The notes under the pieces: model-generated | The model's input: the letters and a program-made list of their open reading frames with translations, nothing else | Told to the model about the DNA's origin: nothing | Database searches by the model: none | Part shown: positions 2,985-53,526 of the stretch, piece after piece | How positions within the stretch are numbered: position 1 is the stretch's first letter | Layout: each line of letters begins with the position of its first letter | DNA from: an uncultured Candidatus Saccharibacteria bacterium | GTDB taxonomy: Bacteria; Patescibacteriota; Doudnabacteria; UBA920 | Assembly: GCA_964524915.1 (NCBI GenBank) | Contig: CAZGEB010000003.1 | Coordinates: 3,263 to 57,268 of the forward strand | DNA: 54,006 nucleotides | Direction of reading: 5' to 3' | Program-made: the position numbers and the translations under genes

Positions 2985-5018
2985 ATGGAAAGAATCAAGC
3001 GGCATTTGTTTTGGGTACTCCCATCTCTAATTTTTCTGACAGCCCTAGCCTTTAGAACCTACAAACTTTTTATACTCCCAGCCGGACTTTTTCCCGATGA
3101 AGCAGCTAACGGACTGGACATTAATTTAATGGAGCAAGGCCATCTTCAGCCATTTTACGAAAGAGGTAATGGCAGAGAAGCCTTGTTTTTTTATATGCTT
3201 TGGGGTAGTGTAAAAATTTTTGGCAGAAGTCCTTTTGCCCATCATTTAGTCTCAGCCCTGGTTGGCACCCTGGCTGTAGCGGCTTGCTATTTTGTAACCA
3301 AAGAAATATTCAGACTCAAGGCTCACTCCTCACGTCTCACGGCTTATCTGGCCGCCTTCCTCATGGCCGTCTCTTCCTGGCACGTAGTTTTATCCCGCAC
3401 AGCCTTTAGGGCCAATTTAATTCCACTTTTGTCAGCCCTCACTCTGTGGGCGATGTTGAAAATAGTAACAAGAGACAAGCAAAAAGTAACAAGTAAACAG
3501 AATCCCGCTGCAAAATCGCTATTCGCTATTCGCTATTCGCTATTCCCCATCCTTTTCGGCATTTTCTTCGCCCTTGGATTTTATACCTACATAGCTTTTC
3601 GCATCATGATTCCGCTTGTGGGTATTTTGATTCTCTGGCCAACCGCGGCCTTTCTTCTGTCATCCCGTGCTACGACACGGGATCTTTACTTAATTTCTAA
3701 TAGCGAACAAAAAAGTGAAGCCGCCGAACTCCATACGGACAATAAAACAAAAAACGATTTCGGATCAAAACTCAAAATATTATTTCAAAATTTTTGGAAA
3801 CCTTTTTTGATTGCCGCAGTCAGTTTTGTAATAGTCATCTCCCCACTAGCTCATTATTTCTATACTCACCCAGGCAGCTTTGTTGGCCGAAGCGGACAAG
3901 TAAGTGTGTTTAATGTGGAATTAAATCATGGAGATCTAATCGGCACTATTTGGCAAGTAAGCAAGGACTCCATACTCGCCTACTTTACCCACGGAGATGT
4001 AAATTGGCGACACAATATTTCAGGCTTTCCTTTTCTTTCTCCTTTCATCTCGCCTTTTTTCGCCATTGGCTTAATTCTGTGTCTCTTGTTCGCTATTCGC
4101 TACACGCTAAGGCCTATACGCTATCGCCAGAACTACCCTGAATTTCTCCTTACTGGATGGTTTTTTGCCATGCTCTTGCCGGTGATCATGACGGCCGAAG
4201 GCATCCCTCACGGACTAAGAAGTATCGGCACTATTCCAGTAGTATTTATTATCACAGCTTATGGAATGTGTAAGGTTTATAATTGTCTCATGTTGTATGT
4301 CATCCCGGACAAGGCCGAGGCTTTGAGAGGCCGTGATCCGGGATCTTTATTAGAAAGCAAGGATACGGATGCTGAAAAAATATTGCAAGTAAGCAAAGAT
4401 CCCGGACATTTTCCCAAAGCGGAAAATTCCGGGATGACAGAAAAGATTGTCCGCGGGCTATCTTTTCTATATATTGCGTTTCTCCTCATCGCCTTACCCG
4501 TTCAAACTTATCAACTCTATTTTGTTACGGCTGCCAATTCTTCTGAAAACTACGAAGCTTTTCGTGGCGATCTGACAGTTGTCAGCGAATATTTAAAACA
4601 GTATGGACACAGAGAAACCACTTATTTAATTCTAGATAAATTTTCTGTGCAAACCACGGACTACCTCACTACCAAAGTCGGCAAGACTTCTTGCGACAGA
4701 GACTCCGCCTATCGCCCAAATAACTGTATAGATGATGCAAGTAACAAACCTTATACTCAAGTAGACCCAGAGGATTCTTGGCTAGGAGGTATGGCCCCCT
4801 CTCCTTCTGAGGAGAGGGCTGGGAAGAGGTTGGCTTCCGATAATACCAAACCTTCCCCTTACACTTATGGACTTAAAAGCGGAGACGAAATCGTTTTTAC
4901 CATGAGTTCACTTTTCGACATTAAAAAATTCAAACAGTACCACCCGAATGTAAAACTAAAACTTTTTGAAAAAAACACTGCGGGAAAATACATTATGGCA
5001 GTATATGTGGTTCAGTAA
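2985..5018 (+). CDS. GT-C fold glycosyltransferase, ArnT/PMT-like (GT39/GT83 type)
   Basis: N-terminal LFPDEAANGLD loop motif, many TM helices and a soluble C-terminal domain. The gene is interrupted by several repeat-derived peptide segments. Confidence 0.75.
   Translation: MERIKRHLFWVLPSLIFLTALAFRTYKLFILPAGLFPDEAANGLDINLMEQGHLQPFYERGNGREALFFYMLWGSVKIFGRSPFAHHLVSALVGTLAVAACYFVTKEIFRLKAHSSRLTAYLAAFLMAVSSWHVVLSRTAFRANLIPLLSALTLWAMLKIVTRDKQKVTSKQNPAAKSLFAIRYSLFPILFGIFFALGFYTYIAFRIMIPLVGILILWPTAAFLLSSRATTRDLYLISNSEQKSEAAELHTDNKTKNDFGSKLKILFQNFWKPFLIAAVSFVIVISPLAHYFYTHPGSFVGRSGQVSVFNVELNHGDLIGTIWQVSKDSILAYFTHGDVNWRHNISGFPFLSPFISPFFAIGLILCLLFAIRYTLRPIRYRQNYPEFLLTGWFFAMLLPVIMTAEGIPHGLRSIGTIPVVFIITAYGMCKVYNCLMLYVIPDKAEALRGRDPGSLLESKDTDAEKILQVSKDPGHFPKAENSGMTEKIVRGLSFLYIAFLLIALPVQTYQLYFVTAANSSENYEAFRGDLTVVSEYLKQYGHRETTYLILDKFSVQTTDYLTTKVGKTSCDRDSAYRPNNCIDDASNKPYTQVDPEDSWLGGMAPSPSEERAGKRLASDNTKPSPYTYGLKSGDEIVFTMSSLFDIKKFKQYHPNVKLKLFEKNTAGKYIMAVYVVQ
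3516..3543 (+). repeat. Heptamer tandem array (TCGCTAT)x4, in frame in GT-C gene 1
   Basis: Four perfect copies, translated as SLFAIRYSLF. A degenerate second tract lies at about 4087-4130. Confidence 0.9.
3657..3686. mobile_element. Family-A hairpin element, single module, in frame in a GT-C gene
   Basis: CTGTCATCCCGTG-CTACGA-CACGGGATCTTTA. It is 31 of 32 nt identical to the intergenic copy at 21767-21798 and is translated as LSSRATTRDL. Confidence 0.8.
4298..4440. mobile_element. Family-A composite mini-element (two inverted hairpin modules plus spacer), in frame
   Basis: Left end TGTCATCCCGGACAAGG..TCCGGGATC (4298-4346), right end GATCCCGGACA..TTCCGGGATGACA (4397-4439). The outward termini are a perfect 12-bp inverted repeat TGTCATCCCGGA. 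Translated as VIPDKAEALRGRDPGS..KDPGHFPKAENSGMT. Confidence 0.8.
4795..4833 (+). repeat. Family-B element, in frame in GT-C gene 1
   Basis: CCCTCTCC-TTCTGA-GGAGAGGG-CTGGGAAGAGGTTGG, translated as PSPSEERAGKRL. Confidence 0.8.
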
Positions 5019-5492: not shown

Positions 5493-7334
5493 ATGACCAA
5501 ATATAAAAACTATTTATTGTTGGGTATTATAGTTACTGTGGGACTAGGGATGCGGATTTTTCACAATCTAGATATTTCCCTTTGGCATGATGAGGCTTTT
5601 TCAGCACTGCTCATAAAATATCCATGGGGAGAAATGATGCATAGAATTGGTCTAGACGTGCATCCACCTATGTACTATATAGCTTTAAGATTTTGGAGTT
5701 ATATTTTTGGCGACTCACTGGCCGCTCTCCGAGGGTTTTCTATTTTCTTTGGAACAGCAACGATCATAGCAGTGTATGAATTGGTGAAGGCGATTACGAG
5801 TGGCGAGTGGCGAGTGACTAGCACAAAACAAAACTTTTCTGTCATCCCGACCTCCTCTTCTGTCATCCCGGCGGAGGCCGGGATCCACACAAAGCTGGAA
5901 AAATCAAAAGCAATAGATGATAAAGAAAAATACATGGATCCCGGTCTTCCCGCGGTCGCCCAAAGCAGCTCCCTTGTAGAAACCGGGATGACAAGAAATC
6001 TAGTCACTCACAATACGATATACGCTCCACTCCTGGCAGCTCTTCTTGTGGCGATCAATCCTTTTCAAATTGGTTTTTCTCTAGAGGCCCGCATGTATAC
6101 TTTTGGCGCTTTTTTGGCTGTACTAGCTGCGTATTTTCTTGTCCGTGCATTAAAAGCTACAAGCTACAAGCTACAAGCTACAAGCTATTTTATGTTTGCG
6201 GTAGCTTCCGGACTAGCCATACTTACTCATTATTATCTGATCTTCACTATAGCAGCACTATGTTTGTATGGACTCTTCCAAACAGCTACAAGCTACAAGC
6301 TACAAGCTACAAGCTTAAAAGCACAAATAGCAAATTACAAATCTAAAACTTGGCAATTAATCTTTTCTTATATTATTATCGGAGGATCCTTCCTTCCCTG
6401 GCTAAAAATATTTTTCTTTCAGTTCAAACAAGTAGGAAACGGGTACTGGATCCCAAAAATGGACCTCTGGAGCATGCCATCCACTATTTACGAAATGCTA
6501 GTAGGCGCTGGGGTAGATGCCCACAAAACCAGCACACAAATAATTCTGATTCTGGTAACGGCTGCGATTGTTTATATTACGATTTCATTTTTACGCAAAT
6601 CAAATCTCGCTTACAAAGGCTTGATTATTTTTGCCTGGCTAGCTCCTTTTGTGGGCTCGCTACTTTTTGCAGCGCTTGCCAAACTAAAAGGCAGCGATTC
6701 CTCTGTGTACTTGATTCGCTATTTTGCTTTTTCAGCTCCCTTTTTTAGTATAATGCTCGCCACGTGGCTAGGAGAATTACGGGTTATACCTGCCCGCTCG
6801 GATGGTGATAGTTACGGGTTACGGGTTGCAAAACTCAGGATCTTTATTCTTTATTCTTTATTCTTTATTCTGCTAATAACCAATCTCTACACTTTTTCAC
6901 ACTACTGGAAAGAACTAAATGTAAAAGAAAAACCAGGCATGAAAGCCGCCGTGGAACTTTTAAAAAATAATACCAAGCAAGGTGATATTTTGATCGTGGG
7001 AAGCAGCTTTGAATTTTTTAATCTGAAGTATTACTTGAACCAGCTATCAGCTAACAGCTATCAGCTAACAGCTAAGTTGTACAGTGGTGGACAAACAACT
7101 ATAGACAACATGCCGCACTTTGCTGGCACGGCAATTCTAACTAACGAGGATTTGCTTCCAAATTTTGAAAGCATTGATTCTGGTAATACTGTATGGCTGC
7201 TTTGGACCAATGGTTTTGGTGGAAATAAACCAGAAGTACCAAGTAATTGGACGCAAGAAGAAGAACACGGCTTCGCAGAAGTCAGACCATATGTAGGCAC
7301 TTGGATTGTAGTGGATAAATATAAAATCAAATAA
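5493..7334 (+). CDS. GT-C fold glycosyltransferase, ArnT/PMT-like (second paralog)
   Basis: ISLWHDEAFSALL motif after TM1, multiple TM helices and a soluble C-terminal domain. It carries many repeat-derived insertions. Confidence 0.75.
   Translation: MTKYKNYLLLGIIVTVGLGMRIFHNLDISLWHDEAFSALLIKYPWGEMMHRIGLDVHPPMYYIALRFWSYIFGDSLAALRGFSIFFGTATIIAVYELVKAITSGEWRVTSTKQNFSVIPTSSSVIPAEAGIHTKLEKSKAIDDKEKYMDPGLPAVAQSSSLVETGMTRNLVTHNTIYAPLLAALLVAINPFQIGFSLEARMYTFGAFLAVLAAYFLVRALKATSYKLQATSYFMFAVASGLAILTHYYLIFTIAALCLYGLFQTATSYKLQATSLKAQIANYKSKTWQLIFSYIIIGGSFLPWLKIFFFQFKQVGNGYWIPKMDLWSMPSTIYEMLVGAGVDAHKTSTQIILILVTAAIVYITISFLRKSNLAYKGLIIFAWLAPFVGSLLFAALAKLKGSDSSVYLIRYFAFSAPFFSIMLATWLGELRVIPARSDGDSYGLRVAKLRIFILYSLFFILLITNLYTFSHYWKELNVKEKPGMKAAVELLKNNTKQGDILIVGSSFEFFNLKYYLNQLSANSYQLTAKLYSGGQTTIDNMPHFAGTAILTNEDLLPNFESIDSGNTVWLLWTNGFGGNKPEVPSNWTQEEEHGFAEVRPYVGTWIVVDKYKIK
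5797..5817 (+). repeat. Heptamer array (CGAGTGG)x3, in frame in GT-C gene 2
   Basis: CGAGTGG CGAGTGG CGAGTGA, translated as SGEWRVT. Confidence 0.8.
5839..5995. mobile_element. Family-A composite mini-element with an extra partial terminus, in frame
   Basis: Partial CTGTCATCCCGA (5839-5850), then the full module TGTCATCCCGGC-GGAG-GCCGGGATCC (5861-5886). An AT-rich spacer follows, then the inverted module GGATCCCGGTCTTCCCGCGG..GAAACCGGGATGACA (5936-5993). Confidence 0.8.
6155..6187 (+). repeat. Heptamer array (AGCTACA)x4+, in frame in GT-C gene 2
   Basis: Four perfect copies plus a partial copy, translated as KATSYKLQATSY. Confidence 0.9.
6284..6316 (+). repeat. Heptamer array (AGCTACA)x4+, second copy in GT-C gene 2
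   Basis: Four perfect copies plus a partial copy, translated as TATSYKLQATSLK. Confidence 0.9.
6777..6868 (+). repeat. Composite of TTACGGG heptamers, a GC-rich core and (TCTTTAT)x4, in frame in GT-C gene 2
   Basis: TTACGGG TTATACC TGCCCGCTCGGATGGTGATAG TTACGGG TTACGGG .. TCTTTAT x4 (6841-6868), translated as LRVIPARSDGDSYGLRVAKLRIFILYSLFFIL. Confidence 0.8.
7041..7075 (+). repeat. Heptamer array (CAGCTAW)x5, in frame in GT-C gene 2
   Basis: CAGCTAT CAGCTAA CAGCTAT CAGCTAA CAGCTAA, translated as QLSANSYQLTAK. Confidence 0.85.
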
Positions 7335-10367: not shown

Positions 10368-11744
10368 TTATTTACCCTTAATTACTTCACTTCCAACATA
10401 CTTTTGCAAAATCTCAGGCACTTTCACAGATCCATCTGCTTGCTGATAGTTTTCCAAAATGGCGATCAAAATACGTGGAGATGCCACTGCGGTATTATTG
10501 AGAGTAAAAGCATATTTCACCTCACCTTTACTGTCGCGATAACGAATATTAAGCCTGCGAGCTTGCCAGTCAGTTAGATTTGAGTCTGAATGAGTTTCCC
10601 CGTAATTTTTTCTAGCTGGCATCCAAGTCTCTATGTCGTACATTTTATATTTACCCATACCCATATCGCCAGTACATACATGAATCACGCGGTATGGTAG
10701 CTTCAAATCTTGCAGCATTTCTTCGGCGATTTCTCTGAGTGCCTCATGGAGACGTTCACTTTCCTCCACCTCCGCTTTACACACAACCACCTGCTCCACC
10801 TTCATAAACTCATGAACACGATACAAACCCTTAGTGTCCTTACCGTAACTGCCAATCTCACTTCTATAGCAAGGGGAAACGCCACACACTTGAATTGGTA
10901 AATCTTTTTCTTCTAATATCTTATCTGCATAATAAGCAATCAAAGAAGGTTCAGATGTTCCCGCCAAAAACATCGGCTCCCTCCCCTTCTGAGGGGAGGG
11001 TTGGGGAGAGGTTGTATCATCATTAACCAAATCATGTTCTTCTGCCACTTGATAAATTTCTTCTCTACCCTGAGGCAACATACCAGCTCCCTGCAATGCA
11101 AATTCCCGAACAATCGTTGGAGTCGCCATCAAAGTAAAACCTTTGGCACGAAGTTTTTCTAGGGCATGCATCATGAGACCATAATGCATAAGCACTAATT
11201 CATTTTTCAAATAATACCCACGAAAACCCGCGGTCTTTACTCCAGCTTCCAAATCCATCAAATTTAAATTCACACCAATCTCTGCATGATCCTTAACTTC
11301 AAAATCAAATTTAGTTGGCACCTCGCTGACTTTGGGATCATCCGCAGACATAGCGCCAGTAGCCACACTCCAGTAACGCCAAGGAATATTTCCACTATCG
11401 TCTTTACCCACCGGCACTTCTGGTGCGGGAATATTTGGAATTTGCAACATCAGAGCATCAAACTGCTTTTGCACTTCGCGAAGTTTGGCTTCCATTTCTG
11501 TTTGCCTGGAATCCACTTCTTTCATCTCGAGCAGCTTTGACGCCTTCTCATCAGCAGACATTTTTGCAATATCCAAAGACACTGCGTTTTTGGCGGCCCG
11601 GAGAGCATCTACCCCCGCCACCAATTCACGTCTTTGCAAATCCCAATCCAAAAGTTGGTCTATCACATTTGCATCAATGCCTTTTTTGCTGCAAGCATCT
11701 TTGACCTTGTCCGCATTTTCTCTAATAAATTTGATATCGAGCAT
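10368..11744 (-). CDS. serS: Seryl-tRNA synthetase
   Basis: MLDIKFIRENADKV N-terminus, a coiled-coil arm, and class II motifs GLYRVHEFMKVEQ and TLNNTAVASPRILIAILENYQ. It contains an in-frame family-B element (TTSPQPSPQKGREP). Confidence 0.95.
   Translation of the reverse strand: MLDIKFIRENADKVKDACSKKGIDANVIDQLLDWDLQRRELVAGVDALRAAKNAVSLDIAKMSADEKASKLLEMKEVDSRQTEMEAKLREVQKQFDALMLQIPNIPAPEVPVGKDDSGNIPWRYWSVATGAMSADDPKVSEVPTKFDFEVKDHAEIGVNLNLMDLEAGVKTAGFRGYYLKNELVLMHYGLMMHALEKLRAKGFTLMATPTIVREFALQGAGMLPQGREEIYQVAEEHDLVNDDTTSPQPSPQKGREPMFLAGTSEPSLIAYYADKILEEKDLPIQVCGVSPCYRSEIGSYGKDTKGLYRVHEFMKVEQVVVCKAEVEESERLHEALREIAEEMLQDLKLPYRVIHVCTGDMGMGKYKMYDIETWMPARKNYGETHSDSNLTDWQARRLNIRYRDSKGEVKYAFTLNNTAVASPRILIAILENYQQADGSVKVPEILQKYVGSEVIKGK
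10977..11014 (+). repeat. Family-B element, in frame (antisense orientation) in serS
   Basis: CCCTCCCC-TTCTGA-GGGGAGGG-TTGGGGAGAGGTTG. It is read on the minus strand as TTSPQPSPQKGREP. Confidence 0.8.
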
Positions 11745-13613: not shown

Positions 13614-13655
13614 AGTGAATAGTGAATAGTGAATAGTGAATAGTGAATAGTGAAT
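13614..13655 (+). repeat. Heptamer array (AGTGAAT)x6, 10 nt upstream of the lysS start codon
   Basis: Six perfect copies, followed by the GC-rich segment CTGCCCGCC..GGCAGGCGGG and a further TGAATAGTGA. Confidence 0.9.
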
Positions 13656-13734
13656 AGACTGCCCGCCAGTGAAAGGCTCAGGCAGGCGGGTGAATAGTGA
13701 CGAACCTTGTCCACCACTCACTTCTTATAGCACA

Positions 13735-13760
13735 CCCGCCATAGCATTAGCGGCGACGGG
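13735..13760 (+). repeat. GC-rich CCGCC hairpin (family D) abutting a heptamer array
   Basis: CCCGCCATAGCATTAGCGGCGACGGG. 22 of 26 nt are identical to the reverse complement of 52401-52428. Confidence 0.7.
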
Positions 13761-13765
13761 CTTCT

Positions 13766-13814
13766 CTTACTTCTTACTTCTTACTTCTTACTTCTTACTT
13801 CTTACTTCTTACTT
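13766..13814 (+). repeat. Heptamer array (CTTACTT)x7
   Basis: Seven perfect copies directly after the family-D hairpin. Confidence 0.9.
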
Positions 13815-13820
13815 CAAACA

Positions 13821-20503: not shown

Positions 20504-21754
20504 CTAAGATAGATAATCCACTAGATTTTCTATTGCCGTATTAGTAAAAAAGTTTTCTTGTCTCTTCTTCACTTCCACGCTTCCTTGCTCCAAAGTTTTT
20601 GTGGAAACCACTACGCGGTAAGGGATGCCGATGAGATCTGAATCCGCAAATTTTTCGCCAGCACTTACACCCTCCCTATCATCGTACAAGACTTCCACCC
20701 CGGCGTCCAGAAGCTCTTGATAAAGCTTATTTGTATGGGAAAAAACATTGTCTGCATCTTTCCCAGGTAGCGCTATTAAATGAACTTTAAAAGGCGCGAC
20801 CGCTTCTGGCCAAACAATCCCCTTTTCATCATTACTCTTTTCGGCAATTACACCCAAGAGTCTACTAATGCCAATTCCATAGCAGCCCATGACTGGATAT
20901 TGCAATTGTCCTGCTTCGTCCGTATACCCAAGCCCAAAATCCTTACCGTATTTTTGCCCCAAATCAAAAACATTACCAACTTCAGAAGCACGACCTATAT
21001 TTAAAACACCACCACACTCTTTAGGGCAAGTATCCCCCTCCTTTTGTTTACTAATTTCAGTATTAATACAGTAATCACATTTTTCACAATACAGAATATC
21101 ATCCTCACCAGCATCAGTTAGCACCATAAACTCGTAAGAAATCTTCTGAGTAAAATTACCGCCAGATGCCTCTGTCACTTTAGCCACCAGCCCAAGTCTT
21201 TTATAAATTTTCAAATACGCTTTCTTGACCTCTCCGTAAAATCGGTCAAAATCCTCCTGGCTAGAATGAAAACTATACATGTCTTTCATCAAAAATTCAC
21301 GGCCGCGAAGTAATCCGGATTTTGCACGCAGTTCATCTCGAAATTTCCACCCCACTTGATAAACAGCTACAGGCAAATCTTTGTACGACTGCACTCTTCC
21401 CAAAACTAAAGGCGTTACAACCTCTTCCTCGCTTTGTCCTAGCGCATAATCTTTTTCAGTACGACTCTTGATTTTGAATAAAACATCTATATTGTCCCAA
21501 CCCCCGGTAGTCTGCCATATTTCTTTTGGGTGCAAAGCTGGCATCAAAATTTCTTGTCCACCTACAGCATTCATTTCTTCCCGCACAATATTAGAAATCT
21601 TATTGAGCGACCTAAGTCCCAAAGGTAGGTAAGTATAAACACCTGCCATAAGTTTACTCACAAACCCAGCTTGTTCCAAAAGCCGACCATTTACAGTAGG
21701 CTCATCTTGTGAGACTGTCTTGCTAGTTTTTAAAAAATATTTTGATTGTCGCAT
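20504..21754 (-). CDS. proS: Prolyl-tRNA synthetase, compact form lacking the INS editing domain
   Basis: MAGVYTYLPLGLRSLNKI, motif 2 FRDELRAKSGLLRGREFLMKDMYSF, motif 3 MGCYGIGISRLLGVI and a C-terminal anticodon-binding domain. It is only 416 aa, with a CxxC..CxxxC segment where INS normally sits. Confidence 0.9.
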   Translation of the reverse strand: MRQSKYFLKTSKTVSQDEPTVNGRLLEQAGFVSKLMAGVYTYLPLGLRSLNKISNIVREEMNAVGGQEILMPALHPKEIWQTTGGWDNIDVLFKIKSRTEKDYALGQSEEEVVTPLVLGRVQSYKDLPVAVYQVGWKFRDELRAKSGLLRGREFLMKDMYSFHSSQEDFDRFYGEVKKAYLKIYKRLGLVAKVTEASGGNFTQKISYEFMVLTDAGEDDILYCEKCDYCINTEISKQKEGDTCPKECGGVLNIGRASEVGNVFDLGQKYGKDFGLGYTDEAGQLQYPVMGCYGIGISRLLGVIAEKSNDEKGIVWPEAVAPFKVHLIALPGKDADNVFSHTNKLYQELLDAGVEVLYDDREGVSAGEKFADSDLIGIPYRVVVSTKTLEQGSVEVKKRQENFFTNTAIENLVDYLS

Positions 21755-21766
21755 AAAGATAGGCTT

Positions 21767-21798
21767 CTGTCATCCCGTGCCACGACACGGGATCTTTA
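21767..21798. mobile_element. Family-A hairpin element, intergenic (proS start / GIY-YIG stop)
   Basis: CTGTCATCCCGTG-CCACGA-CACGGGATCTTTA. Confidence 0.8.
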
Positions 21799-21804
21799 AT
21801 TTAT

Positions 21805-22101
21805 TTACTGAATTATTTCACTATATAAATCTTTCCATTGAGAGTTAGACTTGTTAATCAGTTCCAATTTCCATTGCCTTTTCCACTCCTTGACTTGCTT
21901 TTCTTTTTTAATAGCTGTTTCTATTGAGTTTGTGGACTCAAACCAAACTAACAGGTGAACAAAATATTTTTCTGTAAATCCTTTTATCAGATTATGCTTA
22001 TGTTCATAAACCCTTCTGATCAGATCATTAGTCACGCCGACATGCAGAACTCCATAGGGTTTACTTGCCATGATATAGACATAATAGACATTGCTCTGCA
22101 T
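21805..22101 (-). CDS. Stand-alone GIY-YIG nuclease-domain protein (COG2827/YhbQ-like)
   Basis: YYVYIMASKPYGVLHVGVTNDLIRRVYEHK..FTEKY..LVWFE..AIKKEKQVKEWKRQWK. It is flanked on both sides by family-A hairpins. Confidence 0.85.
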   Translation of the reverse strand: MQSNVYYVYIMASKPYGVLHVGVTNDLIRRVYEHKHNLIKGFTEKYFVHLLVWFESTNSIETAIKKEKQVKEWKRQWKLELINKSNSQWKDLYSEIIQ

Positions 22102-22110
22102 TTGAGTAAA

Positions 22111-22173
22111 GATTCCGGCTCTGTCCCACTACGCTAAAGCTTCGCGGGATCTACGAGAGGCCGGAATGACAGA
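22111..22173. mobile_element. Family-A hairpin module in inverted orientation, just upstream of the GIY-YIG start
   Basis: GATTCCGGCTCTGTCCCACTACGCTAAAGCTTCGCGGGATCTACGAGAGGCCGGAATGACAGA. Stem ATTCCGGC(C)TCT / AGAGGCCGGAAT. Confidence 0.75.
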
Positions 22174-22201
22174 CATTATTTTTTAATTATTGTCATTTTT
22201 G

Positions 22202-23329
22202 TCAATTGAAGATGTTCTTCACAAATTCAAAACTTCTTATGTCGTTTATCGTCACTACACCCACCAGCAAAATCAAAAGCAAAAATCCAATTGCGTTTGC
22301 CCACTGCTCTACGGCTTGATTATTACGCTTGCCACGGATCCCCTCCACTATCAAGAAAAAGATTCTACCACCGTCCAAAGCTGGAAAAGGCAAAACATTT
22401 AGCACCGCTAAATTCAAAGACAGAAAGGCTGCAAACTGCAAAAGATAACCAAAGCCCAAATCTGCAGCTTGTCCAGTGATCTGGGCAATTTTAGCAGGCC
22501 CCGCCACATCTTTGAGTGCCACTCCACCACCGAAAAGTTGTCCCAAGCCTTTTATGATAGCCAGTAGCTGCTCGCCAGTAATCCTTGCCGCCACAATAGG
22601 CGCTTTATACCAAGGATAGCTCAAAGTACCCACCTGAGCCAACTCTACGCCGAGAGCACCACGCCCTTCTTTGGGAGATGGATCTGGCGTAACCTTCAGC
22701 ACTTTGAAATCCCCACCCCGCTTGATCGTAATTTCTATTTCTTTACCCAAACTTTCGGAAACTTTTTGCTGCACCTCAGAGGGAGCAGCCACGCTTTCAC
22801 CATTAACTGCAAAAATCACATCGCCACTCAAAAATCCAGCGGAGGACGCAGGACTACCATCCACAACAGAAGCTAGCGTAACCGCAACATCTTTTAAAGT
22901 TGCTCCACTGGGTAGTTTTGAACCCGCTTCCGCGGGAAGACCTAAGGTCAGGCCCACAGTAAACAAAACAAAAGCAGCGATCACATTCATTCCCACGCCC
23001 GCAAACAAAGTGGCAAACTTTTTTATCCAAGTGCTATTTGAAAAACTTTTGGGGTCAGTATTTCCACCATCCTCACCCCGAATTCTCACAAAAGCTCCAA
23101 ATGGAATCCAGTTGAGAGAATAGACAGTTTTGTCAGGATCTGTCTTTCCCATGCCAACTATTTTCCAGCCGCTCTCTAACTTCTGCACGCCAAAAATGCG
23201 CGGAGGAAAACCAAAGCCGAATTCTTCCGGCATCATCCCGCTCCACTTGGCAAGCAAAAAATGCCCCAGCTCATGTACAAACACAAGCACTCCTAAAACA
23301 ATTATAAAAATTAAAATAGTGGTTATCAT
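22202..23329 (-). CDS. rseP: Site-2 protease RseP (M50 zinc metalloprotease with PDZ)
   Basis: HELGHFLLAK (HExxH), a PDZ segment GSPASSAGFLSGDVIFAVNG, and NVLPFPALDGG. Confidence 0.85.
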   Translation of the reverse strand: MITTILIFIIVLGVLVFVHELGHFLLAKWSGMMPEEFGFGFPPRIFGVQKLESGWKIVGMGKTDPDKTVYSLNWIPFGAFVRIRGEDGGNTDPKSFSNSTWIKKFATLFAGVGMNVIAAFVLFTVGLTLGLPAEAGSKLPSGATLKDVAVTLASVVDGSPASSAGFLSGDVIFAVNGESVAAPSEVQQKVSESLGKEIEITIKRGGDFKVLKVTPDPSPKEGRGALGVELAQVGTLSYPWYKAPIVAARITGEQLLAIIKGLGQLFGGGVALKDVAGPAKIAQITGQAADLGFGYLLQFAAFLSLNLAVLNVLPFPALDGGRIFFLIVEGIRGKRNNQAVEQWANAIGFLLLILLVGVVTINDIRSFEFVKNIFN

Positions 23330-26567: not shown

Positions 26568-26619
<52 letters not shown>

Positions 26620-26631
26620 AGTAATTATACC

Positions 26632-27795
26632 ATGCAAACTCCTCCCCCCAATTTAATAGTCATTGCCGGCCCCACATCCAGCGGAAAATCTGAGCTAGCG
26701 GTCAAAATCGCAAAAAAAATTGGCGGGGAAATCATTTCCGCAGATTCCCGCCAAGTTTACCGCGGTTTAAATATTGGAACAGGCAAAGTTGAGGGAGAAT
26801 GGCAGAAAGTATCCTTAATCCGTAATCCTTTATCCTTAACAAACACAAAACAGCAAACAGGAAAAGATAAAAATGTAATTTCAAATTCAAACCCCCCGCT
26901 CTTAGTCAAGGATCAAAGATTAAAGATTAAGGATAGCAATGTTTTTGTTTACAAAAAAGTATTACACCACTGTATAGACTTTGTAAACCCCAAAAAACAA
27001 TACACTGTCAATGATTTTAAAAAAGATGGACAAAAAGCCATTGAGGATATTTATTCTCGCGGAAAAATCCCGATCATCTGTGGCGGCACAGGCCACTATA
27101 TAGATGCACTGATTTTTGATCAAAATATTCCAGAAGTTCCACCAGATGAAAAATTTAGAAAAAAAATGGAAAAAAAATCCGCAGAAAATCTTTTCTTGCT
27201 ATTGAGCAAAAAAGATCCAGCCCGCGCGAGTAATATAGATAGAAATAATAAACGTCGCCTCATCCGCGCCCTAGAAATCATCCACCATACCAAAAAACCC
27301 GTCCCCTATTTTTCCCCCTCCCCTAGTGAGGGGAGGGCTGGGGAGAGGTTGCACCACGACCGCATAGACCTGCCCACTCCTGCTGACCGGGAATCCATAT
27401 TATCAAATCCTGGATCCTGGATCGCAGTCGCAGAGCCTCCTTTGTCCGGGACGACAAGATTAGAAATAATACTTTTGACTCCACCCCGCCAAGAACTTTA
27501 CCAAAAAATCGAAAAGCGCCTCATTCAAAGAGTGAAGATGGGCATGGTTGAAGAAGTGCTAAAGTTACACCAAAACGGCCTATCCTGGAAACGCATGGAG
27601 TCCCTCGGTCTAGAGTACCGTCACATTGCAAGATTTTTACAAGAAAATAAAAATGTATTCCTAAAAACTAAAAACTCGCAACTAAAAACTCAATTTCTAT
27701 CTTCCTCTCACTTTCAAACTCTCCTTCAAGAAAGCAAAAATTATAGTAAACGCCAAGAAACTTGGTTTAGAAAATATAAAACAGCCGCAAACTAA
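26632..27795 (+). CDS. miaA: tRNA dimethylallyltransferase
   Basis: IAGPTSSGKSELAV P-loop, ISADSRQVYRGLNIGTGK and GGTGHYIDALIF. At 387 aa it is enlarged by several repeat-derived insertions. Confidence 0.9.
   Translation: MQTPPPNLIVIAGPTSSGKSELAVKIAKKIGGEIISADSRQVYRGLNIGTGKVEGEWQKVSLIRNPLSLTNTKQQTGKDKNVISNSNPPLLVKDQRLKIKDSNVFVYKKVLHHCIDFVNPKKQYTVNDFKKDGQKAIEDIYSRGKIPIICGGTGHYIDALIFDQNIPEVPPDEKFRKKMEKKSAENLFLLLSKKDPARASNIDRNNKRRLIRALEIIHHTKKPVPYFSPSPSEGRAGERLHHDRIDLPTPADRESILSNPGSWIAVAEPPLSGTTRLEIILLTPPRQELYQKIEKRLIQRVKMGMVEEVLKLHQNGLSWKRMESLGLEYRHIARFLQENKNVFLKTKNSQLKTQFLSSSHFQTLLQESKNYSKRQETWFRKYKTAAN
26811..26934. repeat. Insertion in miaA bounded by inverted heptamer arrays
   Basis: ATCCTTA ATCCGTA ATCCTTT ATCCTTA (26811-26838) .. 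CAAGGAT CAAAGAT TAAAGAT TAAGGAT (26907-26934), translated as VSLIRNPLSLTN..KDQRLKIKDS. Confidence 0.8.
27314..27351 (+). repeat. Family-B element, in frame in miaA
   Basis: CCCTCCCC-TAGTGA-GGGGAGGG-CTGGGGAGAGGTTG, translated as PSPSEGRAGERL. Confidence 0.8.
27386..27458. mobile_element. Degenerate family-A-like module fused to heptamers, in frame in miaA
   Basis: ACCGGGAATCC..ATCCTGGATCCTGGATCGCAGTCGCAG..GTCCGGGACGACAAG, translated as DRESILSNPGSWIAVAEPPLSGTT. Confidence 0.45.
27661..27695 (+). repeat. Degenerate heptamer array (CTAAAAA-like)x5, in frame in miaA
   Basis: CTAAAAA CTAAAAA CTCGCAA CTAAAAA CTCAATT, translated as LKTKNSQLKTQF. Confidence 0.7.
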
Positions 27796-34469: not shown

Positions 34470-36086
34470 TTACTGTAATTTTTTACGCAAGACTTCATTT
34501 ACTAGACTGGGATTGCCCTGGCCTTTCAATTCTTTCATACACTGCCCCACCAAAAAACCAAAAGATTTTTCTTGTCCAGCTTTAAAGTCCTGCACAGCCT
34601 TTTCATTTTCCGATAAAACTTTGTCTATAGCGGCTTCAATTACAGTAGCATCACTCACCTGAGACAGCCCAAGATCTTTGACTATTTCACTTGGATCGCC
34701 ACCCTTTTCAAACATCACTTTGAAAATTTGCTTTGCGGCCGCAGAAGACACTTCTCCCCGGCTTATCATCAAAATCAATTCCGCTAAATTTTCTGGCGTT
34801 ACAAAAGTTTCATCTGGATTTTTTCCTGCAATTTTCAATGCTGCAGAAAAATCCTGCAAACACCAGTTGGCGGCAAGTTTGATCAGCTTGACCAGATTTG
34901 AATCAATGCTGGATTCCGGTCTTCCCGCGCTCGAGGACTCGCTTGTGGAAACCGGAATGACGGGAGAGGGTGACAGATCAGACAGCCATGCGACTATTTC
35001 ACTCACAACATTTTCAAAATAAAAAGTTAATTCTTTCCAATTCAAAAGATTTTCAATGTCTGCAGCGGGAAGTGCGTATTCACCAGCAAACCTCAGTCTT
35101 TTTGCAGACGGCAATTCAGGCAATTCTGCACGCAATTTTTCTAAATACTCTTTGGTAAAATGCAGTGGTGGTAAATCTGGATCTGGTAAATATCTATAGT
35201 CATTTGCTTCTTCTTTGCTTCTCTGCTCTACAGTTTTATTTAGCTTCTCGTTCCACCCCATGGTAACTTGCTTAGGGGTCACGCCCTGAAGTCGCAATTC
35301 ACTTTGCCTTACTATTTCGTAATTAATCGCTTGCTCTACAAATTTAAAAGAATTAATATTTTTCACTTCCACTTTATAAGGCGGCAAACCCTCTTCACCA
35401 GGAAGCCTCACAGAAATACTTGGCTCGCACCTCATACTCCCCTTTTCCATATCTGCATCGCTGGCCCCCACATAGCGAGCAATGCGCTGTAATTCTTCCA
35501 AATATTTTCTAGCTTCTTCAGCTGACTCTATAACTGGATGAGTAACTATTTCCAAAAGTGGTGTACCGGCACGATTATAATCAACCAAAGAATAAGGCAA
35601 GCCATCTGGGTGCATATTTTTGCCCGCATCCTCTTCTAAATGCGCGCGTTGAATCAGCACCCGCTTTGCATGTACATTTTTCCTCTCTCCTTGTGAGGAG
35701 AGAGCGCCGCCGCCTTGGGCGGGAGAGAGGTTGTCTGAAACTTGTATTTCTATCCACCCCTCTTGGGCGATCGGCTGATCCAACTGAGAAATCTGATAAC
35801 CTTTTGGTAAATCAGGATAAAAATAATGCTTACGATCAAATTTACTCCACTCGTCTATTCTGCAATTCAAAGCCAAACCCATCATAGCAGCCAACCTCAC
35901 GGCTTCTTCATTAATCACAGGCAACGTCCCTGGATGCGCCAAAACCACTTCATCAATATTGGTATTTGGATCTTTTACGCTTTGATCATTTGGGGCAGAA
36001 GAGAACATCTTCGACTTGGTACGAAGTTGAATATGCACCTCAAGCCCAATCACTGGTTTTAATAATTGTATATTATTGTCTATCAT
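34470..36086 (-). CDS. gatB: Asp/Glu-tRNA amidotransferase subunit B
   Basis: IGLEVHIQL, RAHLEEDAGK, VEVKNINSF, EANDYRYLPDPDLPP and a C-terminal YqeY-like domain. It carries two in-frame repeat elements. Confidence 0.95.
   Translation of the reverse strand: MIDNNIQLLKPVIGLEVHIQLRTKSKMFSSAPNDQSVKDPNTNIDEVVLAHPGTLPVINEEAVRLAAMMGLALNCRIDEWSKFDRKHYFYPDLPKGYQISQLDQPIAQEGWIEIQVSDNLSPAQGGGALSSQGERKNVHAKRVLIQRAHLEEDAGKNMHPDGLPYSLVDYNRAGTPLLEIVTHPVIESAEEARKYLEELQRIARYVGASDADMEKGSMRCEPSISVRLPGEEGLPPYKVEVKNINSFKFVEQAINYEIVRQSELRLQGVTPKQVTMGWNEKLNKTVEQRSKEEANDYRYLPDPDLPPLHFTKEYLEKLRAELPELPSAKRLRFAGEYALPAADIENLLNWKELTFYFENVVSEIVAWLSDLSPSPVIPVSTSESSSAGRPESSIDSNLVKLIKLAANWCLQDFSAALKIAGKNPDETFVTPENLAELILMISRGEVSSAAAKQIFKVMFEKGGDPSEIVKDLGLSQVSDATVIEAAIDKVLSENEKAVQDFKAGQEKSFGFLVGQCMKELKGQGNPSLVNEVLRKKLQ
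34911..34962. mobile_element. Family-A hairpin module, in frame in gatB
   Basis: GGATTCCGGTCTTCCCGCGCTCGAGGACTCGCTTGTGGAAACCGGAATGACGG. It has the same architecture as 5936-5993 and is translated on the minus strand as PVIPVSTSESSSAGRPESS. Confidence 0.8.
35682..35733 (+). repeat. Family-B element variant with an extra CCGCC hairpin, in frame (antisense) in gatB
   Basis: CTCTCTCC-TTGTGA-GGAGAGAG-CGCCGCCGCCTTGGGCGGGAGAGAGGTTG. It is read on the minus strand as NLSPAQGGGALSSQGER. Confidence 0.7.
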
Positions 36087-36268: not shown

Positions 36269-37744
36269 TCAACTTAACTTTGGAAAATTCTTATGCCAAT
36301 CTGTTGCTTCTTGGAAGGCCATGCCTACATCAAACAAAACTTGCTCGCCCCACTGCGGACCAATCAATTGCAATCCTACTGGTAGATCCACGTCTCCACC
36401 ATCCACAGGCCTACCAAAACCGCAAGGCAAAGACAAAGCAGGGAGCCCCGCCAAAGAAGATGGGATATTGAGCTGATCTGCAATATAACCAAAAAGAGGA
36501 TCATCAGCTGCACCTTCTATTTTCACCGCCACATTTGGACTACTTGGAGCTGCCAAAACATCTACTTTTTTAAATACTTCTGCAAATTCATCTATAATGA
36601 GTCGCCGCACTTTCTGCGCCCGTTTGTAATAAGCATCGTAATAACCAGAAGACAATACATAAGTACCAGTCAAAATTCTTCTCTTTGCCTCATCGCCAAA
36701 ACCCTCGTCGCGAGTTTTTTCGTACACATCCAAAAGACTATTCGCCTCACTAGACACATGACCATAACGAATACCATCAAAGCGAGACAAATTTGAAGCT
36801 ATCTCAGCCGGGGCTACAATAGCATAAACCAAAGATCCGTATTTTGTATTTGGTAAATCCACCTCCACAAGCTCGGCCCCCAATTTTTCTAATTCTCTGA
36901 TACCATCCATAACCCTTTCTCTTACATCCCCCTCCATACCATCTACAAAGTACTGTTTGGGAACCCCAACCTTAAGCCCCTGCAAGCTTGTAGCTTGTAG
37001 CTTGTAGCTTGTAGCCTTATCTCCAGTCGTGGAGTCTTTCGGGTCTCTTCCAGACATAACATTTGCCAAAACTATCAAGTCTTTTACAGAGTAAGCATGA
37101 GCTCCAGGACTATCCAAAGAAGATCCCATAGCAATCACTCCATATCTAGAAACTCTTCCATAGGTAGGCTTCCAACCACTTACTCCGCAAAGCGAAGAAG
37201 GCTGACGAATACTTCCGCCAGTTTCCGTACCCAAAGTCCAAGGAGCCAAGCCCGCCGCCAAAGAAGCCGCGCTTCCACCACTAGATCCACCAGGAATTCG
37301 AGATTTATCCCATGGATTTTTACTGGGACCAAAAGCAGAAGTAGCAGTAGAAGATCCGTGAGCAAACTGGTCCAAATTAGTTTTACCCAAAAGTACACCT
37401 TTTTGTTCTTTGATTTTTGCAATCACAGTAGCATCAAAAGGCGGTGTATAATTTTCCAAAATTTTGGAGGCGGCTGTGGTTTTCACTCCACGAGTGACAA
37501 ATAAATCCTTTGCTGCATACGGAATTCCACAAAGCAGTGGATTTTCTCCAGACAATTTCATAAACTCATCTGCTTGTCTTGCCTCTTCTAGAGCTTCATT
37601 TTCACAAACTGTAATAAAAGAATTTAATTCCCCATCGAGCTTTTGAATACGCGCCAAAAAATACTTCGTCATTTCCACTGACGAAATTTCTTTATCGTCC
37701 AACAACTTTCTTAATTCAGAAATTCCTAAATACTCTAATTGCAT
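36269..37744 (-). CDS. gatA: Asp/Glu-tRNA amidotransferase subunit A
   Basis: Amidase signature GGSSGGSAASLAAG and GTETGGSIRQPSSLCGV. It carries an in-frame heptamer array (KATSYKLQATS). Confidence 0.95.
   Translation of the reverse strand: MQLEYLGISELRKLLDDKEISSVEMTKYFLARIQKLDGELNSFITVCENEALEEARQADEFMKLSGENPLLCGIPYAAKDLFVTRGVKTTAASKILENYTPPFDATVIAKIKEQKGVLLGKTNLDQFAHGSSTATSAFGPSKNPWDKSRIPGGSSGGSAASLAAGLAPWTLGTETGGSIRQPSSLCGVSGWKPTYGRVSRYGVIAMGSSLDSPGAHAYSVKDLIVLANVMSGRDPKDSTTGDKATSYKLQATSLQGLKVGVPKQYFVDGMEGDVRERVMDGIRELEKLGAELVEVDLPNTKYGSLVYAIVAPAEIASNLSRFDGIRYGHVSSEANSLLDVYEKTRDEGFGDEAKRRILTGTYVLSSGYYDAYYKRAQKVRRLIIDEFAEVFKKVDVLAAPSSPNVAVKIEGAADDPLFGYIADQLNIPSSLAGLPALSLPCGFGRPVDGGDVDLPVGLQLIGPQWGEQVLFDVGMAFQEATDWHKNFPKLS
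36985..37012 (-). repeat. Heptamer array (AGCTTGT)x4, the reverse complement of the AGCTACA arrays, in frame in gatA
   Basis: Four perfect copies, read on the minus strand as KATSYKLQATS. This is the same peptide as in GT-C gene 2. Confidence 0.9.
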
Positions 37745-39221: not shown

Positions 39222-39256
39222 GAATAGAATAAAGAAGTAAGAATAGAGAATAGAGA
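39222..39256 (+). repeat. Degenerate heptamer array (AATAGAG-like)x5, 13 nt upstream of the ccdA start
   Basis: GAATAGA ATAAAGA AGTAAGA ATAGAGA ATAGAGA. Confidence 0.7.
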
Positions 39257-39284
39257 ATGGGGGGAAAAAACGGGATTACTAAAA

Positions 39285-52374: not shown

Positions 52375-52401
52375 AGCAGTAAGTAGTAAGTAGTAAGTAG
52401 T
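52375..52401 (+). repeat. Heptamer array (AGTAGTA-like)x4, 17 nt upstream of the dedA start, fused to a family-D hairpin
   Basis: AGCAGTA AGTAGTA AGTAGTA AGTAGT, then CCGCCGCCGCTAAAGCTATGGCGG. Confidence 0.85.
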
Positions 52402-52428
52402 CCGCCGCCGCTAAAGCTATGGCGGATG
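52401..52428 (-). repeat. GC-rich CCGCC hairpin (family D) abutting a heptamer array
   Basis: TCCGCCGCCGCTAAAGCTATGGCGGATG, whose reverse complement is CATCCGCCATAGCTTTAGCGGCGGCGGA. Confidence 0.7.
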
Positions 52429-52451
52429 CACCATAAGCAGTAGGCAAAAAG

Positions 52452-52775
52452 ATGTTAGATGAAAGTACATTTTTTAAACAAGTCTATGAATTAGTAAAAA
52501 CTATCCCCAAGGGAAAGGTGGTAAGTTATGGACAAATAGCGAGCGCGCTCGGAAATCCTAGAGGAGCTAGAAGTGTTGGCTGGGCACTACATTTACTTGA
52601 TGGAGGCAATAACGCAGTTCCGTGGTGGAGAGTGGTAAATAACGAGGGTCGGATTTCTATTCGCGGCAATTTTGAAGCCACGACTGAATTACAAAAGCAG
52701 TTGCTAATAAATGAGGGAATAGAAATAAACCAGGAAATGAAATTTGATATTGAAAAATATAGGTTTAGTTTTTAA
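52452..52775 (+). CDS. atl: Alkyltransferase-like protein (MGMT DNA-binding fold without the active-site Cys)
   Basis: IPKGKVVSYGQIA..GNPRGARSVGWAL..VPWWRVVN. The PCHRV cysteine is replaced by Trp. Confidence 0.8.
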   Translation: MLDESTFFKQVYELVKTIPKGKVVSYGQIASALGNPRGARSVGWALHLLDGGNNAVPWWRVVNNEGRISIRGNFEATTELQKQLLINEGIEINQEMKFDIEKYRFSF

Positions 52776-52794
52776 GACAACCACCCACCCATTT

Positions 52795-52846
52795 CCTGTC
52801 ATCCCGAATCCCGCCGACGGCGGGACGAACGCGATCCGGAATCCAG
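52795..52846. mobile_element. Family-A hairpin element, intergenic (atl / HAD)
   Basis: CCTGTCATCCCGAATCCCGCCGACGGCGGGACGAACGCGATCCGGAATCCAG, with inner hairpin TCCCGCC-GAC-GGCGGGA. Confidence 0.75.
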
Positions 52847-52883: not shown

Positions 52884-53489
52884 ATGATAAAAGCAATAAC
52901 ATTTGACTTAGACGGTGTTTATTTTATAAATGGTAAATCAAATTTCATCAAAACTCTAGGGGAAATGGGAGTTGATGAAGCGGAGGCCAAAAGAGTATTC
53001 CTCTCAAGCCCTGAAATGAATTTTCAGTACAAAACAGGAAAAATGACAGATGAACAATTTTGGTCTTGGGCTTTAGCAGAATGGAAACTAGACATAACCG
53101 TAGAAGAAATTATCAATTTACTAATAAAAGGCTATGAAGTAGATGATAATGTTGTTAATGTAGTTAAAAAAGCAAGGGCTAACGGTTATAAAACACTTAT
53201 TTGCACAAATAATTTTCCCGCTCGCATAAATGGACTGCAAAAAAGGTTTGGGTTTTTAGATAACTTTGATGTAACTGTAATTTCAAGTGAAGTGGGCGCA
53301 ATTAAACCCCAAAAAGAATTATTTGAAGCGCTAATAAACCAATCTGGAGTAAAACCTTCTGAAATATTTTACGCTGATGATTATGACGAAGCAATAGAAA
53401 CCGCGAAAAATCTTAACATTGAGACATTGCATTACACTGACTTTCCAAGTTTTTTAGATAAATTAAAAGAATTAGGTGTAAATCTATAA
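52884..53489 (+). CDS. HAD-superfamily hydrolase
   Basis: Motif I ITFDLDGV, motif II LICTNN, motif IV FYADDYDEA. Confidence 0.8.
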   Translation: MIKAITFDLDGVYFINGKSNFIKTLGEMGVDEAEAKRVFLSSPEMNFQYKTGKMTDEQFWSWALAEWKLDITVEEIINLLIKGYEVDDNVVNVVKKARANGYKTLICTNNFPARINGLQKRFGFLDNFDVTVISSEVGAIKPQKELFEALINQSGVKPSEIFYADDYDEAIETAKNLNIETLHYTDFPSFLDKLKELGVNL

Positions 53490-53497
53490 CGTAACTG

Positions 53498-53526
53498 GAT
53501 CCCGTGTCGCGGCACGGGATGACAGA
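53498..53526. mobile_element. Family-A hairpin element, inverted orientation, intergenic
   Basis: GGATCCCGTGTCGCGGCACGGGATGACAG, the reverse complement of CTGTCATCCCGTGCCGCGACACGGGATCC. Confidence 0.8.

Follow-up and report, generated by a model that had tools for sequence, protein, structure and literature searches.

The window analysed here, a 54-kb stretch (54,006 nt) of contig CAZGEB010000003.1, encodes a small Ssn-family GIY-YIG nuclease, and inverted hairpin modules, their tags pointing outward, stand on either side of the gene. The host is a member of the Patescibacteria; the relatives of the ProRS and GT-C glycosyltransferase proteins encoded in the window are named Patescibacteria or Doudnabacteria. 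We conclude with good confidence that the locus is an Ssn cassette, that is, an ssn gene placed between its own recognition hairpins; this confidence covers both the assignment to the family and the mechanism, recognition of hairpins in single-stranded DNA (ssDNA), which was drawn from homology. The gene-plus-hairpin unit is a new example, in Patescibacteria, of the Ssn/hairpin system published in 2025 and not a new kind of element. A previous reading of the window, made from the letters alone (the sequence-only reading), was not aware of a described transposition or homing system of this type, but Ssn nucleases flanked by cognate hairpins have been published (Chenal et al., Nat Commun 2025, PMC11893778).

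In that study, the Ssn family comprised single-domain GIY-YIG proteins of about 94 aa (CDD cd10448). The SsnA protein of N. meningitidis bound its hairpin, CGTCATTCCCGCGMAVGCGGGAATCYRG (NTS, a longer form of dRS3), solely as ssDNA and did not bind the RNA version; cleavage fell a few nt upstream of the hairpin on that strand only, with no action on double-stranded DNA or RNA. Mutants of Y6, Y17 or E64 lost cutting and retained binding. Binding and cutting restricted to ssDNA were reported for the enzymes of N. meningitidis, N. elongata, N. wadsworthii and Wolbachia. An Ssn-related motif (SRM) was nearby in 71% of Ssn homologs and on both sides in 42%, and 81% of genomes with >200 SRMs encoded ssn (PMC11893778).

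The cassette in the window comprises the following features:

21805..22101, minus strand: ssn gene, encoding a 98-aa single-domain GIY-YIG protein assigned to the Ssn family (open reading frame list and Pfam PF01541)
21765..21797, plus strand: 3' (downstream) cassette module, tag outward (TTCTGTCAT), with an 8-bp stem and a 6-nt loop; z-score -4.35
22111..22173, minus strand: 5' (upstream) cassette module, tag TCTGTCAT on the sense strand of the gene, outward-facing

The downstream hairpin (CTGTCATCCCGTGCCACGACACGGGATC, 21767-21794) lies 10 nt from the ssn stop codon, and the upstream one (GATTCCGG...CCGGAATGACAGA, 22111-22173) lies 10 nt from the ATG. Re-extraction of the gene and of both hairpins agreed in position and sequence with the sequence-only reading, which had also correctly described the outward TGTCAT-type termini as an inverted repeat around the GIY-YIG gene. 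The upstream module is closed by an 8-bp stem (ATTCCGGC/GCCGGAAT), its loop holds a 43-nt structured insert, and as ssDNA it folds at -12.4 kcal/mol (z-score -2.7). Its stem reads ATTCCGG...CCGGAAT where other copies read ATCCCGG...CCGGGAT, a compensatory C-to-T and G-to-A change. The downstream module fits the published SRM pattern, HGTCWY..RNCYNB; the upstream module has the tag, the stem and the tail, with a loop too long for the pattern.

The sole Pfam match of the 98-aa protein was PF01541 (GIY-YIG; residues 6-78, E 2.8e-11). The protein is 50% identical to a 94-aa homolog from N. gonorrhoeae (pairwise blastp, E 7e-36), an E-value below the 1e-10 used as the Ssn family criterion for homology to SsnA (PMC11893778). 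This N. gonorrhoeae protein, chosen by its length and by its residues Y6, Y17 and E64, stands in here for N. meningitidis SsnA and, judging by its sequence, is presumed to be the SsnA ortholog. The three residues align with Y9, H20 and E67 of the window protein. The N. gonorrhoeae homolog was found by a tblastn search of a 7.3 Gb plasmid collection, in which two N. gonorrhoeae records matched (E 4e-25); these records are 2.17 Mb long and chromosome-sized, though filed as plasmids in PLSDB. An AlphaFold2 model of the window protein (pLDDT 94.5) consisted of one compact domain, for which Foldseek confirmed the GIY-YIG fold, with the UPF0213 protein BH0048, the nuclease domain of Slx1 and the N-terminal domain of UvrC as the closest solved structures. 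A sequence search of the PDB with the single protein gave no match, a profile search returned UPF0213 and UvrC weakly, and there was no Ssn structure in the PDB; NCBIfam held no model for the protein. More than 4,600 relatives of the protein were present in databases, many of them 60-70% identical across distant phyla.

Ssn genes and hairpins in other genomes

A scan of one genome per species returned at least 579 relatives of the window protein. From the best 80 loci, the 75 with full flanks were surveyed for an outward-facing tag-plus-hairpin module within 200 nt of the ssn gene. Such modules were found on both sides in 52 of the 75 loci (69%) and on at least one side in 70 (93%), across many phyla, with median gaps between gene and module of 29 nt upstream and 16 nt downstream. 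The association of these nuclease genes with hairpins is thus general and not confined to the window; whether such genes are systematically flanked was a check proposed in the sequence-only reading. Among the Patescibacteria loci of the survey, 9 of 11 were flanked on both sides. When we implemented the SRM pattern itself, it recovered both-side flanks in 13 of the 75 loci and 3 of the 11 modules in the window, and a tag-plus-stem detector was therefore used for the survey. The 122 gene-proximal modules comprised 40 distinct stem sequences, indicating that hairpin and tag are conserved while the stem sequence drifts. As one example, a relative 70% identical to the window protein and adjoining a kdp operon (L001) has the same bracket, with TGTCATTCCGGCGGAAGCCGGAATCTT and AAAGATCTCGGCTTTCGCCGGGATGACA on either side of the gene.

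Several ssn cassettes have, along their outer edge, tandem copies of the tag with a few adjoining nt (TGTCGTTCCAAAGAATAT x3, TGTCATCACATATGC x3, GGGGAATGAC x4-5). These copies were seen in L001 (9900-9975), upstream of the gene in L085 and downstream of it in L087, and a similar fragment is present in the window at 5840-5860; they could be the scar of repeated cutting and repair beside the tag. In N. gonorrhoeae (L095; NZ_CP119142.1, 1880219-1883488), the 94-aa protein is encoded amid seven canonical NTS copies, and the hairpins nearest ssnA have their tags facing the gene, contrary to the window and to 69% of the loci surveyed, where tags point outward.

Hairpin modules in the window and at orthologous loci

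The motif TGTCATYCCG occurs in 10 copies in the window, compared with 0.09 expected, and 0 of 100 shuffles reached 10. A tag-plus-stem search added one further copy, giving 11 modules, ten tagged TGTCAT and one CGTCAT. Each full module has an unpaired (T/C)GTC tag, then a closing stem of 8 bp whose sequence starts with AT, a variable loop, and a tail of ATC followed by CA or TT. When a module is folded as ssDNA, the closing stem begins directly after TGTC and leaves the tag unpaired; compared with shuffled controls, z-scores were -2.7 to -4.9 in 7 of 10 modules. The 8-bp closing stem starting AT...AT is complete in 9 of the 10 full modules, the module at 52797 having one mismatch. Loops measure 4 nt in one module (5861), 6 nt in three (3658, 21768 and 53524) and 24-43 nt, often with an inner hairpin, in the others. 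The SRM pattern was matched by the three modules with 6-nt loops, compared with 0.13 matches expected by chance. Four inverted pairs with outward tags were present: 4298/4439, 5861/5993, 21768/22171 around the nuclease gene, and 52797/53524 around a gene for a HAD-family hydrolase, the last not having been noted in the sequence-only reading. Seven of the 11 modules lie within coding sequences. The modules outside the cassette are the following:

3655..3687, plus strand: single module, in frame in GT-C gene 1 (2985-5018), within a 34-aa insertion
4295..4443, both strands: gene-less inverted pair, modules 4298-4344 (+) and 4399-4439 (-) with a spacer of about 51 nt, in frame in GT-C gene 1
5837..5996, both strands: tag fragment 5840-5849 and gene-less pair 5861-5884 (+) / 5938-5993 (-), in frame in GT-C gene 2 (5493-7334)
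34913..34962, minus strand: single module CGTCATTCCGG...CCGGAATCCA, in frame in gatB (34470-36086, minus strand)
52797..52846, plus strand: degenerate module with one stem mismatch, upstream of the HAD hydrolase gene, tag outward
53495..53524, minus strand: module downstream of the HAD hydrolase gene, tag outward; z-score -4.26; fits the SRM pattern

The single module in GT-C gene 1 (3657-3688) is identical to the downstream cassette module (21767-21798) at 31 of 32 positions, as had been noted before, the lone difference being in the loop; over 43 nt, the identity is 93%. The composites at 4298-4440 and 5861-5993, which lack an open reading frame of their own, do have the layout claimed for them, a module, an A/T-rich spacer of about 51 nt and an inverted module, with TGTCAT ends pointing outward. 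Folded as one strand, the pair at 4295..4443 reached -34.9 kcal/mol (z-score -8.2). Translated in frame (…VIPVSTSESSSAGRPES…), the gatB module falls in the linker that joins the GatB_N and GatB_Yqey domains encoded by this essential gene. The HAD hydrolase gene (52884-53489, plus strand) is bracketed by the modules at 52797 and 53524, tags outward, as is the nuclease gene, which is therefore not alone in being bracketed. Directly upstream of the HAD gene is a small gene (52452-52775) with the DNA-binding domain of O6-methylguanine-DNA methyltransferase.

Comparison with homologs indicated that the modules inside the two GT-C genes are insertions. The single module in GT-C gene 1 corresponds to a 34-aa insert absent from 8 of the 9 homologs compared, and the pair in the same gene to an insert of about 45-50 aa absent from all 9. 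The pair in GT-C gene 2 corresponds to an insert of about 60-70 aa that is absent from two orthologs (L093 and L094). The view of the gene-less pairs as insertions was thus upheld, and the pattern of modules inside genes is that of the Rickettsia RPEs.

Presence and absence were also seen for the cassette as a whole, at the junction between the genes for RseP and ProRS. In five contigs of relatives (L088, L089/L090, L091, L092), the RseP-ProRS spacer measured 15-93 nt and held no ssn gene and no hairpin. Gene order was kept in all five (pol III delta', BNR protein, RRF, RseP, ProRS, MreB, MreC, PBP2), and their ProRS was 75-83% identical to that of the window. One relative was syntenic with the window over 39.5 kb and had no real module and no ssn, compared with 11 modules and one ssn gene in the window. 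Because the empty junctions lack both the gene and the modules, this comparison of orthologous loci, also proposed in the sequence-only reading, indicated that the gene and its two modules are gained or lost as a whole unit.

A second genome offered a view of how gene-less pairs might arise. On a Thermodesulfobacteriota chromosome (L066 and L078), ssn genes lie within arrays of 10 and 7 gene-less pairs. The pairs have a 21-nt spacer, TATTGGTTAACC|AGTTGAATA, in which the 12 nt that open the interior of the gene-bearing unit are followed by the 9-11 nt that close it (TATTATTTAACCcg ... cgCCAGTTGAATA). By this sequence match, the gene-less pairs resemble what an internal deletion would leave of the gene-bearing unit.

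Other repeats were also present in the window. Short tandem arrays of 7-nt units (AAGCTAC, TCGCTAT, GAATAAA, TCTTACT, CTAGCCA) are numerous, including those at the following positions:

3516-3551: 7-nt tandem array
6152-6186: 7-nt tandem array
6281-6315: 7-nt tandem array
7039-7073: 7-nt tandem array
13617-13647: 7-nt tandem array
13765-13815: 7-nt tandem array
26574-26608: 7-nt tandem array
36984-37018: 7-nt tandem array
39227-39271: 7-nt tandem array

The arrays at 6152-6186 and 6281-6315 are translated within GT-C gene 2 (ATSYKLQATSY), and at least the second corresponds in position to an insert absent from orthologs. A second, unrelated hairpin repeat family, CCCTCCCCTTCTGAGGGGAGGGTTGGGGAGAGGTT, occurs at 4797-4837, 10979-11019 and 27316-27356; the copy at 4797 is in frame in GT-C gene 1, within a C-terminal insert (…GMAPSPSEERAGKRLAS…) absent from homologs. 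An inverted pair of 46-nt repeats (13720-13765 and 52396-52441), 80% complementary with the GC-rich palindrome GCCGCTAA.GCTATGGCGG, is possibly a third repeat family. An open reading frame of 1,496 aa (41904-46394, minus strand) has internal repeats 277, 85 and 42 nt long as well as many glycine-rich stretches of the GGTGGTGGAGG type, and its product is probably a large repetitive surface protein. In one strain contig (L098), the match to the window runs from 4486 onward, and the first 98 nt (1-98) are unrelated sequence; this start is probably a chimeric join, the alternative being a rearrangement with its breakpoint about 46 nt past the 4298-4440 pair.

How the hairpins may have spread

By homology with the Neisseria and Wolbachia enzymes, the window protein would bind a module only in folded ssDNA, the recognised module presumably presenting an unpaired TGTCAT tag, a stem whose first pairs are A-T and T-A, and, directly after the stem, an unpaired C. 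The cut would be expected to fall a few nt 5' of the tag, on the tag strand. With the flanking modules in inverted orientation, a single cuttable site would lie on each strand, immediately beyond the cassette. The gene-less pairs and the single modules are probably non-autonomous relatives of the cassette and would be substrates in trans. In this compact genome, modules would persist chiefly where loops and linkers tolerate in-frame insertion, as is the case for the Rickettsia RPEs. As GIY-YIG enzymes are hydrolytic, spread would most likely occur not by transposase chemistry, but by nick-initiated copying dependent on host recombination, repair or replication. The most likely effect in the cell, by analogy to N. 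meningitidis, would be the cutting of incoming or exposed ssDNA at modules, limiting recombination across module-flanked genes. That Ssn is itself the enzyme that spreads the repeats we judge less likely than not.

A possible account, though one we would not call probable, is that of an autonomous mobile element, a new kind of insertion sequence, in which Ssn mobilises the hairpin-bounded cassette that encodes it and also acts, in trans, on single modules and gene-less pairs, as RAYT is thought to act on REPINs. Chenal et al. raised a mobile-element hypothesis for ssn earlier and likened NTS-ssnA-NTS to an insertion sequence and to REP/RAYT, mobility not being demonstrated there (PMC11893778); no later paper on the mobility of Ssn turned up in the library searched, and the literal repeat sequence, used as a literature query, brought up unrelated matches only, such as primers. 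The inverted terminal modules with outward tags, around the gene as well as in gene-less pairs, speak for mobility, and so do the recurrence of the bracket layout across phyla and the 60-70% identity of Ssn proteins from distant phyla, which is consistent with horizontal spread. The presence or absence of the cassette at a conserved junction, the GT-C inserts missing from homologs, and the resemblance of some gene-less pairs to deletion derivatives of the gene-bearing unit point the same way. In addition, no dedicated transposase was found for the CGTC-tagged REPs (Di Nocera et al. 2013, PMC3733652).

A number of observations weigh against this account. SsnA spares the reverse strand of its hairpin, leaving one cuttable site per cassette strand, and because of this, peel-and-paste excision of the IS200/IS605 kind does not follow directly. 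GIY-YIG nucleases are hydrolytic, and we know of no strand-transfer reaction or covalent intermediate for them. Direct repeats were sought around the cassette and the pairs, and no target-site duplication was found. The sequence-only reading had offered the many copies that follow TTC as a target-site signature; TTC does precede the tag in 6 of the 11 copies, but it extends the inverted repeat (TTCTGTCAT / ATGACAGAA) and is not a target-site duplication. Seven strain contigs, chosen by their carrying an exact 139-aa neighbouring protein and 97.6-100% identical, all carried the inserts, with no indel and no presence/absence polymorphism. As the empty-site relatives are only 75-83% identical in ProRS, gain and loss of the cassette are indistinguishable and its exact boundaries unmappable. 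Derivatives resembling miniature inverted-repeat transposable elements had been proposed for the window; a derivation of this kind, with pairs that look like internal deletions, was seen only in the Thermodesulfobacteriota arrays, and in the window, alignment of the pair spacers with the inner ends of the ssn cassette gave nothing above background. The window holds a single ssn copy, the HAD hydrolase gene has a bracket of the same kind, so that bracketing alone is no mark of an autonomous element, and the hairpins nearest N. gonorrhoeae ssnA face the gene and not outward. Other evidence speaks against the main reading, the Ssn cassette with its recognition hairpins: eight of the 11 modules in the window fail the published SRM pattern, mostly because their loops measure 24-43 nt.

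The nuclease itself adds a further point against the main reading. At position 20, the Tyr of the YIG half-motif (SsnA Y17), present in 118 of 120 homologs, is replaced by His in the window protein. As the Y17A variant of SsnA kept binding and lost cutting, the window copy may be impaired and may, by analogy, bind without cutting. R.Hpy188I, an active restriction enzyme, has Lys at the equivalent position, however, and Lys there is thus compatible with activity. Strain contigs L004-L007 all encode the same Ssn protein with His20, and the change therefore appears fixed in the sampled population. Of the earlier proposal that the nuclease mobilises the hairpins, the idea of a mobile element is supported by presence and absence and by the inserts, while for mobilisation by the nuclease neither a target-site duplication nor an insertion polymorphism within the population was found.

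We are similarly doubtful, and somewhat more inclined to disbelief, about a domesticated host system, in which ssDNA restriction would shape the recombination of incoming DNA, as in N. meningitidis, and the repeats would now be immobile relics. Deletion of N. meningitidis ssnA raised transformation by hairpin-bearing DNA about 5-fold, an effect abolished by mutation of the hairpin, and hairpin-gene-hairpin layouts around ordinary genes were reported in the same species (PMC11893778); in the window, the HAD gene is so arranged. The single ssn copy in the window and the fixation of the inserts in all sampled strains fit such a system as well. However, 7 of the 11 modules lie in coding sequences, compared with about 2% of the hairpins inside genes in N. 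meningitidis (PMC11893778), which resembles tolerated insertion and not placement around protected genes. The absence of the cassette from five relatives and the replacement of the catalytic-site Tyr by His also argue against domestication.

It is very improbable that the hairpins are ordinary terminators or mRNA-stabilising stem-loops at gene ends, brought next to the nuclease by coincidence and without functional link to it. The downstream module, read inward, does score as a terminator-like hairpin followed by a T-rich tail, and many REPs were suggested to act as RNA (Di Nocera et al., PMC3733652). On the strand of the gene itself, however, this hairpin has no following U-tract, SsnA does not bind the RNA hairpin (PMC11893778), the motif occurs 10 times against 0.09 expected, and Rfam gave no relevant family, either for the whole window at the gathering threshold or for 21650-22300 at an E-value threshold. 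The association of gene and hairpin across phyla, with tag and hairpin beside homologs in 93% of 75 loci, comes close to refuting this explanation.

A free-standing homing endonuclease (Seg- or Tev-like), cutting a double-stranded target in alleles that lack ssn and spreading by break repair, would account for the GIY-YIG domain and for a gene present or absent at a conserved site, but is hardly credible: the 98-aa protein is a catalytic domain only, without the DNA-binding domain that homing GIY-YIG enzymes require for their long double-stranded targets, cassettes occur in many unrelated contexts and not in one cognate target gene, and N. meningitidis SsnA cuts ssDNA beside its hairpin and is inactive on double-stranded DNA (PMC11893778), so that the link to homing endonucleases drawn in the sequence-only reading was not supported.

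Returning to mobility, its most specific form, in which an autonomous Ssn cassette undergoes ssDNA-specific nicking at its terminal hairpins and is then copied by host replication or repair, the gene-less pairs and single modules being its derivatives, is in our judgement rather unlikely. If true, a mobilising enzyme would have been found for the CGTC-type REPs, the Neisseria dRS3/NIME arrays and the Rickettsia protein-coding palindromes, and the in-frame position of such repeats within essential genes would be accounted for in reduced genomes, this Patescibacteria genome among them. The locus extends the Ssn/hairpin system to Patescibacteria and adds long-loop modules, a clean presence or absence of the whole cassette at a conserved gene junction, in-frame hairpin insertions like the Rickettsia RPEs in GT-C glycosyltransferases and gatB, and a natural His substitution at the catalytic Tyr; the second genome adds gene-less pairs that resemble internal deletions of the gene-bearing unit. 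Together, these features make it more testable whether, and in what manner, Ssn spreads its hairpins.

Comparison with known systems

The domains of Slx1 and UvrC and the UPF0213 proteins (PDB 1zg2, 1ywl) have the catalytic fold in common with Ssn and gave the best Foldseek and profile matches. Slx1 and UvrC, which have further domains or partners, act on duplex DNA that is branched or damaged, and the UPF0213 proteins form a separate small family with no hairpin association to our knowledge. With classical insertion sequences and their miniature derivatives, the cassette shares terminal inverted modules, but neither target-site duplication nor a known type of transposase.

The resemblance to REP/REPIN-RAYT systems is closer. 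In both, a single-copy enzyme gene is flanked by inverted hairpin repeats, the repeat is dispersed as single copies and inverted pairs, and the enzyme recognises the hairpin in ssDNA. The enzyme here, however, is a hydrolytic GIY-YIG nuclease and not a Y1 HUH (IS200/IS605-like) tyrosine transposase, and the tag is CGTC/TGTC and not GTAG.

As for the repeats themselves, catalogued in 2013 and earlier, the CGTC-tagged REPs described by Di Nocera et al. (2013, PMC3733652) form a class that takes in the Neisseria dRS3/NIME arrays as well as Rickettsia RPE-4 and RPE-6; TGTC is a frequent form of the tag, stems of 8-9 bp start with A-T pairs, tails are CCA, and most copies form inverted pairs. The window modules are alike in their unpaired CGTC/TGTC tag, their 8-bp stem with A-T pairs at the first two positions, and their short unpaired tail, which is CCA in four copies. 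Inverted pairs with spacers of 20-100 nt are frequent in both, and some copies lie inside protein-coding genes, like the RPEs. The described loops are 4-5 nt, whereas those in the window are 4, 6 or 24-43 nt and represent a long-loop variant. The class was judged apparently to lack a dedicated transposase, and many members were suggested to act at the RNA level (PMC3733652); the association with Ssn came afterwards.

The closest comparison is with the published Ssn systems, from which the window differs in several respects. The host is a member of the Patescibacteria, a group without mention in the text of PMC11893778; most modules have structured loops of 24-43 nt, outside the published pattern; 7 of 11 modules are in frame inside genes, as opposed to about 2% in N. 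meningitidis; His stands in place of the Tyr of the YIG half-motif; and the tags point away from the gene, while those of the nearest N. gonorrhoeae hairpins point toward it. In both, a single-domain GIY-YIG nuclease of about 94-98 aa, here 50% identical to the presumed Neisseria SsnA ortholog, is encoded between tagged hairpins with (C/T)GTCAT, a stem starting with A-T and ATC(C/T), and the same hairpins are dispersed in the genome.

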